The notes: generated by a model not told the origin, from the sequence alone. A stretch of DNA of 64,000 nucleotides from a virus (IMGVR_UViG_3300033121_002338:1-64000); one strand, 5' to 3'. Numbered from the stretch's first letter, positions 1-54,379 are shown. A program made the numbers and translations.

Positions 1-141
1 GAGGTTGGCCTGGATCGCGGAGTCTAGCAACCACTTGGTGCGTCCCCAACTGGCGGCACTTGGGGCCTTTAGGAAAATTCCTAATGCTTTTTTCTCGCCG
101 TCGTTGCCGAATTGTTTGATGTGGCGGACTAGTGCCCCCAT
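1..141 (-). CDS. partial hypothetical protein running off the left edge
   Basis: Manual translation from ATG at 141: MGALVRHIKQFGNDGEKKALGIFLKAPSAASWGRTKWLLDSAIQANL, open to the window edge and directly downstream of the 155..661 ORF. Confidence 0.4.
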   Translation of the reverse strand, partial: MGALVRHIKQFGNDGEKKALGIFLKAPSAASWGRTKWLLDSAIQANL

Positions 142-154
142 GGCGCGGGCGGCG

Positions 155-661
155 TCACGGACTACTGGGTGGTTTTCGGCGATGATGCTGAGTTTCATTT
201 TTATGCTGGTGAGGACAGCTTCCGTAAGTAATTTTGGCATGACAGCAGTTCTGACATAATACCTCGTACCCCTTTGGGTAGCCGGCTTTTTTGACTTTGA
301 GATATAGCCGGTAGCTGTTGATCTGCTGGCGGTGTTCGCCGCTCAGGCATAAAAATTGGATGGATTTTTCACCGCAGCATTGGCAGGATGGGGGTTGGCC
401 GCCGTAGTGCCAGAGTGCGAGCAGTCTTAGGTCGCTGAGTTTGCTTTTCTTTTCCCGTTGGAGTCTGTTTTGATTTTTGGTTCTGTAGTTCTTTTGTTTG
501 ATGGCGTTGCCGGTTGGGCGGGGGTGTTTTTTGTCGTATTTGGTTTGTTTGCGTCTCTGGCATTGTTTGCAGGGGCTGGTGAGGTGGTTCTTTTTGCGGT
601 AGAAATATTCGTCGGTGGCTGGTTTTCCTTGTTTGCATTTTCGGCAGGTTTTGAGTTCCAT
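155..661 (-). CDS. HNH-like zinc-finger endonuclease, possibly degenerate
   Basis: N-terminal CRKC...CKQC, then CQCCGE and a C-terminal VLCQNCCHAK...GSCPH typical of phage HNH proteins; the expected DH motif reads FLCLSGEH. Confidence 0.6.
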   Translation of the reverse strand: MELKTCRKCKQGKPATDEYFYRKKNHLTSPCKQCQRRKQTKYDKKHPRPTGNAIKQKNYRTKNQNRLQREKKSKLSDLRLLALWHYGGQPPSCQCCGEKSIQFLCLSGEHRQQINSYRLYLKVKKAGYPKGYEVLCQNCCHAKITYGSCPHQHKNETQHHRRKPPSSP

Positions 662-693
662 GATGTGGTCTCTTGCTGTGCCGTCTATGTATT

Positions 694-1731
694 TTATGGA
701 TGTGATGGAGATGGTTGGTTCGCGAGAGGTTGGTGTTTGTGGACCTTCTTGATTTGGTGTTGCCTACTGGGTTCTCGCGGAGGTGTTGTTGGACCACGGC
801 GAGAACCGGCCAGAAGCCGAGTCCCTGTTGCAACGCCTCTTGGGGCGTTGCCCAAATTGAAAGCTGACCGGGTCGCCGCCGCTGATCTGTGTTGCAACGC
901 CTCTTGGGGCGTTGCCCAAATTGAAAGAAAGTATCTGTCAGAATGGTAGCGCTCCACGAAAGTTGCCTTGGCCTGGTCCCTGGCGCGCTGGTTCTCGAAC
1001 CTCGCCCCGTGCCAATATTCCCCGTGGACTTCCACAAGAATGCTACGTGGTTCACCCGGCACACAGAAGTCGAACGGCCAATGGCCAACCAGATGCTGCC
1101 GCTCGTAGCCCACCCCGAGGTTATCCAGGACAGCGGCCAGGCTATCTTCGAGCTTGCTCTTATTGTTTGATAAGACGGCCTTTGTATATTCTGGGCGACT
1201 CCAAGCGGCTTTGACTCCGGCGCTGATTTTGAGCTTGGTGCCCGGGGAGCGAAGCTTCTCGACCAGCTTGGCCCGATATTCTGGATTGTTCCAGTTCGTC
1301 CTGGCCGCGTTGGCTAATTTTGGCCTGTAACCCTCTCTGGCTACATTGAGATTGGATAGGCGTTTGGCCTCGTTCGAGCGGAGGGCGGTGACAGCCTGGG
1401 TGTGGTAGGTGCTGTTGTTGGCGTGGGCGGCGGCAATTCCGGAGGAGACCTTGGCGCGGTACTCGTCCGACTGCCATCGTTCGCTTGTGAGGCGCTGTTG
1501 TGCCTCACTCTGCTTCTGGGCGTAGTCTTGATTTTTCCAGACCGATCGTTGTTTGCAGCTACGGCAGGTGGGGTGGAAGGGTTTGCCGTGGTTGGGTCGG
1601 ATGGAGCTGAGTTTGAAGGTGAGTTCGTTTTTGCATTCGGTACAGAGCACGATGACTGGCATTTTGCCGGTGATTGTACTCTGGTCGTGTCCGAATTTGG
1701 CTTTGGTTTTTGGCCAATCTATGAAGCACAC
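694..1731 (-). pseudogene. broken Vsr/DUF559-like endonuclease gene (nuclease A): lacks its first 5 codons and the Mom domain
   Basis: Close paralogue of 7637..9097 (WPFDF...ILVEVHGEYWHG.RFENQR.RDQAKATF.ERYHSD). Homology stops at about 928, where the CRISPR-like repeat begins. The missing MNNAQ start lies at 7066..7052. Confidence 0.8.
827..927 (+). CRISPR. CRISPR-like mini-array: two identical 37-bp repeats and one 27-bp spacer
   Basis: GTTGCAACGCCTCTTGGGGCGTTGCCCAAATTGAAAG at 827-863 and 891-927, with an internal 8-bp stem (GCAACGCC/GGCGTTGC) and an ATTGAAAG 3' end. Spacer ctgaccgggtcgccgccgctgatctgt. No cas genes in the window. Confidence 0.75.
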
Positions 1732-7174: not shown

Positions 7175-7203
7175 CAGAATAGCGCGGGACGAAGTTGCCG
7201 GCA

Positions 7204-7620
7204 AAGCCTGCTGGAGACAGCTAAGGTGAGCACGACTATGGTAGCGACCATTTCGACTGTACCAAGCCTGCCGGGAACAGCTAAGGACGAGCACGAACTG
7301 GCCGTGATGAAGAAGCGGCAGGCGCGCTGACCGACAAAGTCTGCTGGGAATAGCTAAGGATGAGCACGCTACCCGGATGCTGTATGGCCACCTGTTCCGG
7401 CGGACCGATAACGCCTGCCGGGAGCAGCTAAGGATTAGCACTGAGATACCGCTCCTGTTTGACCAGCTGACAGAGCCTGCTGGCGGCGACTAAGGATGGC
7501 ACGGTAAGCTCAGGATAGGCATGCGTCGTCCGGGTGATAATCCTCACTCTGGAATGCACAATAATAGGCAAGCCGCTAAGGGAGCACGAACCCGCGAGCC
7601 AGTAAACTAAGGATCGCACA
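7204..7620. repeat. degenerate repeat-spacer array: five ~33-bp repeats and two partial ones, with unique 28-40-bp spacers between the full repeats
   Basis: Consensus AAGCCTGCYGGGAACAGCTAAGGATGAGCACGA at about 7204, 7264, 7337, 7411 and 7472; CTAAGG..GCAC cores again at about 7575 and 7606. Confidence 0.8.
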
Positions 7621-7636: not shown

Positions 7637-9097
7637 TCATAGGTCGATCACAAATCTCGTCTTCGTACCCCCATCGCATCTAGTATAACCATGCTTGGCG
7701 GCATAATCCACTTCACTCATCCCCATTTTCTTAGACTGGTTCCACAGAGTCTTCTTATGCATAATGAACCCATCGCGATCTCTGTAGAAGTAATCGGCCC
7801 TGATCACTCCATCTAATCTCCAGTTGCTCGCCTTGTAAATCGTCCCGGCGTGCCCGTAGGTGCTGTCGGCGAAAGTCATCAATTTCTTGACCGGCAGAAA
7901 CTGGTAGGTCCTGGCCAGGAACCAGGACACCAGATTATGCTTGCGGTAACAGGGATGCACCGCGAGTCTAGTCAATTCCATGATCTCTCGATACTTCACC
8001 CCCTGCTTCTTCGCTGATTCCACCCTGGTTGGGTAACAGTATCTGGCCACCCCGACGATCGTATCGCCGTCCATCGCCGCCACACTGATACCACTCCTGC
8101 CCCCTGAGGCGGTGTGGTGGTATTTGCTGAGGAATAGATTGGCTTTGCTGGCCTCGATCGTCTTGATCTCAAGCTGCGAGAATTTGTAGTCAACAGCTTG
8201 GGGTTGGCGGCCGAACCAGCCGGCGACCAGATGGTGGATACGTTCTGGCGATAGGAATTCGTGCTCCCAGAGTACCTTCAATTCATACTTGTCGGAGTGG
8301 TACCGCTCGATAAAGGTGGCCTTGGCCTGGTCCCTTGAGCGTTGGTTCTCGAATCTCTCGCCGTGCCAGTATTCACCGTGGACCTCGACGAGAATATCAC
8401 GCGGGGTGTGTGGGATGTGGAAGTCGAAAGGCCAGTGGCCGACGGTATGCTGGCGATCGTAGCCGATCCCCAAATTGTCAAGTATAGCTGCCAGATTCTC
8501 CTCTAGCTTGCTCTTGCTGTTCAGCAGGACCGCCTTCGAGTATTCCGGGCGGCTCCAGGCGGCTCTAACCCCGGTGCTGATCTTGAGCTTGGTGCCCGGC
8601 GAGCGGAGTTTCTCGACCAATTTGGCCCGGTACTGCTGGTCTGCCCAATTCTTCTTCGCGGCTGCTACTAATTTGCCCCGGTAGCCATCCCGGACGGCAT
8701 CTAGATTCTGCAGACGTTTGATCTCGTTCGACCGCATGGCGGCGACCGCCTGGGCGCGATAGGTGTTGTCGGTGTGGGCCGCCGTCACTCCGGCTACGAT
8801 CTTGGACCGATATTCATCGGATTGCCAGCGTTCGGCCGTGAGGCGCTGCTGAGTCTGGGCTTGTTTCTGGGCGTATTCGGGCCGCTCCCAGACCGACTTC
8901 TGCTTGCAACTGCGGCAGACGGGGTTGAATGGTTTGCCGTGGTTGATCCGGACTGAGCTGAGTTTGATGATCAATTCTGACTTGCATTCGGCGCAGCGGA
9001 CGATGACCAGGTTCTTCCCGACCGCCTGGGCCAGCCCGTAGCCGAACCTGGCCTCGGTTTCCGCCCAGTCAACCAGATGCACCTGAGCGTTATTCAT
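7637..9097 (-). CDS. Zn-finger/NUMOD3-like + Vsr/DUF559-like endonuclease + Mom-like GNAT fusion (nuclease B)
   Basis: CAEC...CRSC, W..xEYR repeats, FDF...VEVHGEYWH...RD, then FLSKYHH...ELTRLAVHP...NLVSWFLA...TFADSTYGHAGTIYKASNW. Confidence 0.8.
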   Translation of the reverse strand: MNNAQVHLVDWAETEARFGYGLAQAVGKNLVIVRCAECKSELIIKLSSVRINHGKPFNPVCRSCKQKSVWERPEYAQKQAQTQQRLTAERWQSDEYRSKIVAGVTAAHTDNTYRAQAVAAMRSNEIKRLQNLDAVRDGYRGKLVAAAKKNWADQQYRAKLVEKLRSPGTKLKISTGVRAAWSRPEYSKAVLLNSKSKLEENLAAILDNLGIGYDRQHTVGHWPFDFHIPHTPRDILVEVHGEYWHGERFENQRSRDQAKATFIERYHSDKYELKVLWEHEFLSPERIHHLVAGWFGRQPQAVDYKFSQLEIKTIEASKANLFLSKYHHTASGGRSGISVAAMDGDTIVGVARYCYPTRVESAKKQGVKYREIMELTRLAVHPCYRKHNLVSWFLARTYQFLPVKKLMTFADSTYGHAGTIYKASNWRLDGVIRADYFYRDRDGFIMHKKTLWNQSKKMGMSEVDYAAKHGYTRCDGGTKTRFVIDL

Positions 9098-53614: not shown

Positions 53615-54379
53615 ATGAAGGATCGTCTGATGGTGGCGCTCGATGTGCCAGATGTGTCGAGCGCCCTAGTTGTTATTGAACAGACCCACCAGCACGTGGG
53701 TTGGTACAAAATCGGCCTTGAATTAATCGCCTCTCAGAACGCCGACAAGGTTCTCGGTTGGGTCAAGAAACACGAAGCCCGTGCTTTCTTTGATATTAAA
53801 CTGAACGATATCCCCACTACCGTCGGGCGTTCGGTCCGGGCCGCCAAGAAATTGGGGGTCGATCTAATTAACGTTCACGCCACCGCCGGCCTAGCCGCGA
53901 TGAAAGCCGCCGTGGAGGAGGCCGGGGACGAAACCATGGTGGCCGCCGTCACGATTTTGACGTCGCTAGATTGTAATGACCTTGAAAAGTGTCGTTTTGA
54001 CATCTCCGGCCACATGTCCGATGCGAGTGCGGTTGGTTCGTTGGTCAGTGACCTGGCTTGCCTGGCGGCTGAGGCTAAGGTGCCCGCCATCATCTGTTCG
54101 CCGCGTGACCTGCCATATCTGGTCAATGGCGGGGTGTTTGACAAATTTGTGAAAATCACTCCGGGCGTGCGGCCGGCCTGGGCGGCTGCTAATGACCAGA
54201 AGCGGGCGATGAGCCCGGCAGACGCCATTGAGGCCGGCGCCGACAAACTGGTGGTTGGGCGGCCCATCACAGCCCCGCCGGATGGCCTTACCTGTTCTCA
54301 GGCAGCCCAGAAGATCCTGGCCGAGATCGAGGCTATGGAGGCCTCGATCAAAGAGTCTTATGTCCTGTCGTCTGTCTGA
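53615..54379 (+). CDS. pyrF: orotidine-5'-phosphate decarboxylase
   Basis: LMVALD...YKIGLEL...FFDIKLNDIPTTV...VHA..G...VTILTS...TPGVR...DQKR...GAD.LVVGRPIT. Confidence 0.95.
   Translation: MKDRLMVALDVPDVSSALVVIEQTHQHVGWYKIGLELIASQNADKVLGWVKKHEARAFFDIKLNDIPTTVGRSVRAAKKLGVDLINVHATAGLAAMKAAVEEAGDETMVAAVTILTSLDCNDLEKCRFDISGHMSDASAVGSLVSDLACLAAEAKVPAIICSPRDLPYLVNGGVFDKFVKITPGVRPAWAAANDQKRAMSPADAIEAGADKLVVGRPITAPPDGLTCSQAAQKILAEIEAMEASIKESYVLSSV

Follow-up and report, generated by a model that had tools for sequence, protein, structure and literature searches.

Phage-borne mini-arrays and lone CRISPR repeats without cas genes are documented (PMC7162821, PMC10651486, 10.1101/2024.10.29.618823, 10.1101/2023.03.03.530964), in line with the initial annotation of the locus described here. 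Lone phage repeats act as RNA anti-CRISPRs (PMC10651486), and the part of supplement file 3 of that study (Camara-Wilpert et al. 2023) considered here lists phage solitary repeats typed as I-C by SRUFinder, such as GTTGCAACCCTCATGGGTTGCGTTAGATTGAAAT; at least 68 of the supplement entries contain GTTGCAACC, and the same list holds a 37-nt I-D repeat, GTTGCAG...GATTGAAAG (PMC10651486). A solitary unit in the sense of SRUFinder has at least 90% identity and coverage to a known repeat, is intergenic, and has no second repeat within 100 bp; the type I-C layout comprises a 5' GTY, a G+C-rich stem of 6 to 9 bp, a 4-nt loop, and a free tail of 11 to 13 nt ending in ATTGAAA(C/T). Compact arrays lacking Cas genes are found in huge phages, their repeats being common to host arrays and some of their spacers matching other phages (Al-Shayeb et al. 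2020, PMC7162821). Viral crRNA-like regulators (Cracr) and mini-arrays with short spacers are likewise known in phages (Liu et al., bioRxiv 10.1101/2024.10.29.618823; Shmakov et al., 10.1101/2023.03.03.530964). The spacers of Cracrs and regulatory mini-arrays measure 17 to 27 nt in type I-F examples, with 20 to 60 bp between repeats generally, and what defines a Cracr is a match of its spacer, at nine or more PAM-proximal bases, to the promoter of a host cas or toxin gene, with likeness to host CreA/CreR (10.1101/2024.10.29.618823; 10.1101/2023.03.03.530964). RNA anti-CRISPRs, Cracrs, and cas-less compact phage arrays are already known; what is new here is a second natural form of the present locus, haplotype V, found on a metagenomic contig.

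The window analyzed here, 64,000 nucleotides long, is the first 64 kb of an 83,341-bp IMG/VR virus record (IMGVR_UViG_3300033121_002338) that is about 23% complete by CheckV. Pfam matches to portal gp20, tube gp19, sheath, gp25, gp15, and prohead protease mark it as a T4-type myovirus, in agreement with the first description of the locus as phage-borne. The large terminase, TerL, has less than 30% identity to that of any cultured phage, and its best matches are uncultured phages of 484 to 595 kb; the source is an uncultured huge T4-like phage. The record also encodes PyrF (orotidine 5'-phosphate decarboxylase; 53615-54379, Pfam 7e-40), which is uncommon in phages; its nearest atlas clusters are bacterial and commonest in Pseudomonadota, which does not settle the host and points there only vaguely.

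Layout of the repeat unit and its closest relatives

Two exact copies of GTTGCAACGCCTCTTGGGGCGTTGCCCAAATTGAAAG lie on the + strand at 827-863 and 891-927, on either side of a single spacer (864-890) of 27 nt with 70% G+C, compared with 55% for the record. Each 37-nt copy starts with GTTGCAAC and consists of GTT, a 9-bp stem with a 4-nt loop, and a 12-nt tail, CCAAATTGAAAG, that ends in ATTGAAAG; it folds at -15.2 kcal/mol (z = -3.4), so that the two identical 37-bp hairpin repeats around one 27-nt spacer that had been proposed from the sequence are exactly confirmed. A T precedes both copies (at 826 and at 890), and the exact repeat is therefore 38 nt, with a spacer of 27 nt, or of 26 nt if the T is assigned to the repeat. 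In 100 dinucleotide shuffles the repeat match was never reproduced, and with up to 14 mismatches allowed the 83,341-bp record contained no third copy. With two identical direct repeats and a unique spacer, the locus is the smallest array possible under the usual minimum (at least two near-identical direct repeats of about 23 to 50 nt with unique spacers), its spacer lying at the short end.

As first noted, the repeats are unaccompanied by cas genes: none was found among the best 25 of 28 PADLOC families and the best 25 of 31 Pfam families matched by the 86 open reading frames (ORFs) of at least 70 aa in the 83-kb record, nor in 7 kb further left that is covered by the contig carrying haplotype V (L209), making 90 kb seen in all.

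The closest described relatives are the I-C-typed solitary units, or Racr (GTTGCAACC...GATTGAAAT), which in the listed part of the supplement are likewise phage-borne with no cas genes nearby and have the same first eight bases (PMC10651486). They also have the same outer stem (GCAAC/GTTGC), a 4-nt loop, and an unpaired tail ending in ATTGAAA-, and some of the phages listed with I-C-typed units also have two units less than 200 nt apart (PMC10651486). Aligned with GTTGCAACCCTCATGGGTTGCGTTAGATTGAAAT, the present repeat has 29 identical bases in 39 aligned columns, which is 29/34 of that repeat's bases, and gives the same dot-bracket pattern. This identity of only about 74% is the best documented among the entries listed, and the repeat here differs in being 37 nt long with a 9-bp stem and a tail ending in G, compared with 34 nt and a 7-bp stem in the I-C-typed unit (PMC10651486). 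Measured against the type I-C layout, the fold agrees and the tail has 12 nt but ends in G, and the length of 37 nt compares with 32 to 34 nt in the listed examples. Judged from its bases and predicted fold, the build of the repeat appears close to those of types I-C and I-D. The class 1 look proposed in the initial annotation thus extends beyond the two ends, since stem position, loop size, and tail length match those of the I-C solitary repeats in the supplement (PMC10651486).

The repeat falls outside the SRUFinder definition, its best identity being about 74% and its copies lying 27 nt apart, while haplotype V has one copy and a decayed one; two exact copies at this distance are a mini-array, not a solitary unit, under the SRUFinder pipeline (PMC10651486). 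Though outside that definition, the unit may work like Racr. It resembles the arrays of Al-Shayeb et al. in belonging to a huge phage, in being very small, and in having no interference or integration genes in view, and differs from them in that neither a host repeat nor a target was found here (PMC7162821). With Cracrs and regulatory mini-arrays it has in common two repeat-like units around one short spacer in a phage without cas genes; the repeats here are identical and theirs are degenerate, and the likeness is one of layout.

We put at roughly one in two the probability that the unit is a class 1-type CRISPR-repeat mimic that acts via host Cas as a decoy or as a short-guide regulator. The unit would then, we infer, descend from a host CRISPR repeat, be transcribed from the + strand and processed, and affect host immunity. 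Read from the + strand, its hairpin would be bound by the repeat-cutting enzyme of the host (Cas5d or Cas6), which would cut 8 to 12 nt before the 3' end of the repeat. The products might either soak up host Cas proteins in the manner of an RNA anti-CRISPR (a Racr-type decoy) or load Cas with a short 27-nt guide that permits binding without cutting, as a Cracr or crRNA-like regulator would. What favors a CRISPR-derived unit is that its edges fall on canonical motifs, that it has the stem-loop-tail layout and the repeat-spacer-repeat order, and that haplotype V contributes a decayed terminal copy and an unrelated spacer.

A second haplotype at a rearranged nuclease locus

The repeat region lies between two genes that, like all its neighbors, are on the - strand. 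On its left is P0002 (155-661), encoding an HNH/endonuclease VII-like nuclease; on its right is a Vsr/Hef-type nuclease gene, which we call nucA (928-1731), cut short and missing its Mom half. The nucA ORF, with its Vsr-like domain, extends over 694-1731, because the open frame crosses both repeats before a stop at 694; with a period of 64 nt, it passes the two repeats in two different frames. Residues 1 to 271 of nucA have 69% identity to a paralogue, nucB (7637-9097), which continues into a Mom domain that nucA lacks; DNA homology between the two genes stops at 931, three bases from the second repeat copy, which is followed by AAA (928-930). None of the other nine nuclease paralogues of the record has such a unit after its stop codon.

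An exact look-up of the P0002 protein led to haplotype V, on an 8,751-nt Logan contig of run SRR27472031, L209, whose positions 1-1570 correspond to window positions 1-1050. The two haplotypes are 100% identical over window positions 1-732 and 931-1050 (852 nt of flanks) and differ in between. In the orientation of the window, V passes from position 732 into one exact repeat, 14 nt (CACCGACTCGGACA), a decayed copy (ATTGCAATGCATCAGGCGCCGCCCAAATTGAGAAC), AAA, and an intact Mom half of nucA. The exact repeat corresponds to copy 1 together with one base on each side (L209:802-840). The decayed copy, of 34 to 35 nt, has 27 matched positions plus indels, is about 74% alike, and has no hairpin (-2.8 kcal/mol); it stands at the far end, as is often the case in CRISPR arrays. 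The Mom half in V (Pfam Mom, 8e-18) has 82% identity to nucB and aligns to the last residue of nucB, from where the nucA gene of V continues for three further codons into the decayed copy (GGA, stop). The tail of that copy overlaps the native last codons of nucA, which read VLNL where nucB reads VIDL; recombination at a common CAAATTGA could be the source of this overlap.

Compared with V, the window has 630 nt fewer, or 210 codons in frame, which amounts to the entire Mom half; its second repeat is perfect and stands in the place of the decayed copy of V, its spacer of 27 nt is unrelated to the 14 nt of V, and it has 93 extra bases to the left of the first repeat (733-825). This 93-nt stretch abuts copy 1 and is absent from V, and neither it nor the spacer has relatives in the record or in L209. 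It holds an inverted repeat of 15 nt (770-784 and 793-807; GGTTCTCGCGGAGGT and ACCACGGCGAGAACC), 87% complementary with its arms 8 nt apart, 20 nt left of copy 1. The stretch to its left (662-732), from the repeat region to the start of the HNH-like gene, is common to both haplotypes at 100%; on the + strand it is a candidate leader, and on the - strand it forms the 5' untranslated region that precedes the HNH-like gene.

Two intact repeats around a 27-nt spacer in the window, against one intact repeat with a 14-nt remnant in V, form a natural pair that could be used to separate repeat-driven from spacer-driven action. The exact repeat is kept in three copies across the two haplotypes next to unrelated short spacers; since the repeat is constant and the spacer is not, action via the repeat is favored over action via the spacer, and with it the reading as a mimic that serves as a decoy or short-guide regulator. 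The edges of the unit are exactly GTTGCAAC and ATTGAAAG in all three contexts (two in the window, one in L209), and the flanks of the three intact copies are unrelated to one another and to the adjoining coding sequence (shuffle p 0.4 to 0.99). Sharp edges between unrelated flanks are the pattern of spacer-separated CRISPR repeats, not that of a segmental duplication. Derivation of the repeat from a duplicated 3' end of the Mom gene was considered and rejected, comparisons of the spacer and flanks with the Mom coding end giving shuffle p values of 0.56, 0.99, and 0.42; a plain 64-bp tandem duplication was likewise rejected, because copy 2 is followed by sequence that bears no relation to the spacer.

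Contigs of related phages, whose proteins are 55 to 59% identical to nucA, show what this locus looks like elsewhere: a nuclease-Mom gene, a gap of 4 to 5 nt, a homologue of P0002 (58% identity), and then the same amidohydrolase as in L209. In three related phages the HNH/endonuclease VII-like gene directly follows the Hef-Mom nuclease gene (e.g., L211:4499-5017; L212:4502 onward), which makes the two a conserved nuclease pair, and no intergenic space, repeat, or array was found at these loci. As the nuclease genes of the relatives are only 4 to 5 nt apart, the stretch that bears the repeats, 266 nt long in the window and 132 nt in V, is an insertion specific to this phage lineage. In two of the related contigs (L212 and L213) the HNH-like homologue starts with TTG and had not been called as a gene.

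The position of the unit in this nuclease-rearrangement hot spot, together with the lack of relatives in the arrays searched and the lack of support for + strand transcription, weakens the reading as a mimic, and it is what gives substance to the chief alternative: that the unit is a non-CRISPR hairpin in a homing-nuclease hot spot, either a signal on the gene-sense (-) strand (an insulator, an RNA-stabilizing 3' hairpin, or a protein site) or a recombination scar, and resembles CRISPR by chance. We regard this as rather unlikely, yet as an explanation that has to be taken seriously. It fits the exact rearrangement junction, where the homology of nucA breaks off 3 nt from copy 2 and an in-frame gap of 630 nt has removed the Mom half, and the fact that between identical flanks of 852 nt the haplotypes differ here by structural changes only; the overlap of the decayed copy with native last codons (VLNL against VIDL) could mean an origin from a gene end. 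Upstream of the repeats we saw no sigma-70-like or T4-late consensus for a + strand promoter, and since the neighboring genes are all on the - strand, the RNA actually made may be the complement of the class 1-type repeat. Spacers of 27 and 14 nt are, moreover, short for CRISPR. Against a non-CRISPR origin, homology between the copies stops sharply at the unit edges and does not extend into coding sequence, unlike that of duplicated gene ends, and the nine other nuclease paralogues lack the unit after their stop codons. The hairpin is also not an intrinsic terminator, which would be a G+C-rich hairpin with an immediate U-run: no U-run follows it on either strand (CCAAAUUG comes next on the + strand, AACACAGA or AACAGGGA on the - strand), and a terminator scan had no entry for it. 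A chance resemblance would further need the coincidence of the GTTGCAAC start, ATTGAAAG at the exact edge, a stem with a 4-nt loop, a 12-nt tail, a length of 37 nt, and the repeat-spacer-repeat order. If the unit were only a hairpin scar, it would be a warning that a stem with the right end motifs may pass for a CRISPR repeat.

Searches for related repeats and spacer targets

The repeat had been called canonical, and the lack of a similar repeat in any cas-associated array had been named as counting against the idea; no cas-associated array with this repeat was found, and no similar repeat turned up in any array, cas-linked or not, in scans that needed exact pattern matches. Such scans with the stem fixed covered 185,579 species genomes, IMG/VR, and JGI metagenomes and gave no near-identical repeat; when the pattern was loosened, IMG/VR and the JGI metagenomes likewise yielded none, and only the common ends recurred. 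The looser IMG/VR scan returned 47 loci, as many as chance predicts, all of them single matches in coding sequence or unrelated hairpins; one of these (L047) is an intergenic hairpin of similar build. One likely first repeat of similar build, at a contig end (L190), came from a loose metagenome scan, and a scan with the 18-nt 3' half of the repeat matched only unrelated conserved genes. By blastn the repeat was not found in PLSDB or in cultured phages, and no array with the repeat was present in a sample of 401 Pseudomonadota genomes. No Rfam family reached its gathering score in the window; CRISPR-DR6 and CRISPR-DR27 appeared only at E values of about 5 to 8, by way of the two ends.

True arrays with partly similar repeats do exist in metagenomes: four contigs (L177, L179, L191, and L198) carry a 35-nt repeat, GTTGCAACAGTGCTTACCGCTTGCGGTATTGAAAC, that starts with GTTGCAAC and ends with ATTGAAAC. 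The likeness is limited to the two ends; the inner sequence and the position of the hairpin differ, their stem abutting the 3' tail. These arrays, of up to about 35 repeats (for instance at L177:4277-7150, - strand), lie on AT-rich contigs, and their repeats decay at one end. The fetched flanks contain no cas genes; one flank holds an iron-only hydrogenase. If the unit described here is a repeat mimic, it would point to a class 1 repeat family and a host that are so far absent from genome collections.

Use of the locus against rival phages, which the initial annotation had raised, corresponds to a working mini-array, in which host Cas proteins would process one crRNA whose 27-nt spacer is directed at a competing phage or plasmid. 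Two intact repeats do enclose a unique spacer, its 70% G+C against 55% for the phage hints at a foreign origin, and phage arrays that target other phages are known (PMC7162821). Yet the use has no support, because no target of the spacer was found. The absence of a protospacer from the window, reported first by eye, extends to the whole record at up to 7 mismatches; in IMG/VR, no protospacer sharing either 18-nt half of the spacer was found at fewer than 5 mismatches, the few 18-nt partial matches being at chance level on contigs of 54 to 69% G+C; and blastn against plasmids and cultured phages gave chance matches only (E of at least 0.8). The length of 27 nt is below that of usual class 1 spacers. 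Haplotype V, moreover, has only 14 nt between its intact and decayed repeats and lacks the spacer of the window, which is thus dispensable. We therefore consider a working mini-array improbable, and the mimic, for which a constant repeat is what matters, the better account of the two haplotypes.

Two further explanations have very little to recommend them. In one, the unit would be a class 2 (type V-like) repeat when read from the - strand, with a 12-nt 5' part and a 3'-terminal hairpin as in Cas12-family repeats, and its effector would lie in the unseen 77% of the genome. The - strand is that of all neighboring genes, so that transcription would come free, the hairpin on that strand is equally stable (-14.7 kcal/mol), and huge phages carry compact type V systems (PMC7162821). 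There are, however, no cas genes in 90 kb, the match of both edges to class 1 end motifs would have to be chance, and the open frame of nucA passes through the unit. The start CTTTCAAT, moreover, is unlike those of known type V repeats. It is just as hard to credit a dead relic, that is, a functionless and decaying piece of a host CRISPR array gained by illegitimate recombination: in V one copy has already degenerated and no longer forms a hairpin, the short spacers are not the same in the two haplotypes, and no promoter was found, but three copies are still exact, including the 9-bp stem, and the unit has survived in both haplotypes although its surroundings are heavily rearranged.

A second array and the nuclease cassettes

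Just past the stop codon of nucB, at 7197-7620 on the + strand, is a degenerate array in which about seven repeat-spacer units follow one another at a period of 60 to 74 nt; Rfam gave no CRISPR family for it. One of its units (7404-7441) reads CTGCCGGGAGCAG followed by CTAAGGAT and recalls the hairpin and handle of a type I-F repeat, while the stems of the other units are weaker. The 83-kb record has no repeat-spacer arrays other than this one and the unit at 827-927, and both are located 3' of sister Hef-Mom nuclease genes (nucA and nucB; 69% identical), on the opposite strand. That the homing-nuclease cassettes of this phage carry CRISPR-repeat decoys as cargo is an idea we hold to be quite doubtful.

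If the unit by nucA is a repeat mimic, RNA-based anti-CRISPRs or regulatory mini-arrays would be extended to a very divergent T4-like huge phage, and the association with mobile nuclease genes suggests a route by which such small RNAs might pass between phages. Were both arrays such mimics, anti-CRISPR RNAs would be carried from one phage genome to another by a selfish nuclease element, and this phage would have weapons against two CRISPR types simultaneously.

Beyond the nuclease pair, L209 reaches 7.2 kb past the left end of the window and there encodes an unknown 174-aa ORF and, within L209:2031-7477, the amidohydrolase, an NAD-dependent DNA ligase, and an RlaP-type nucleotidyltransferase, besides ORFs that match no family.
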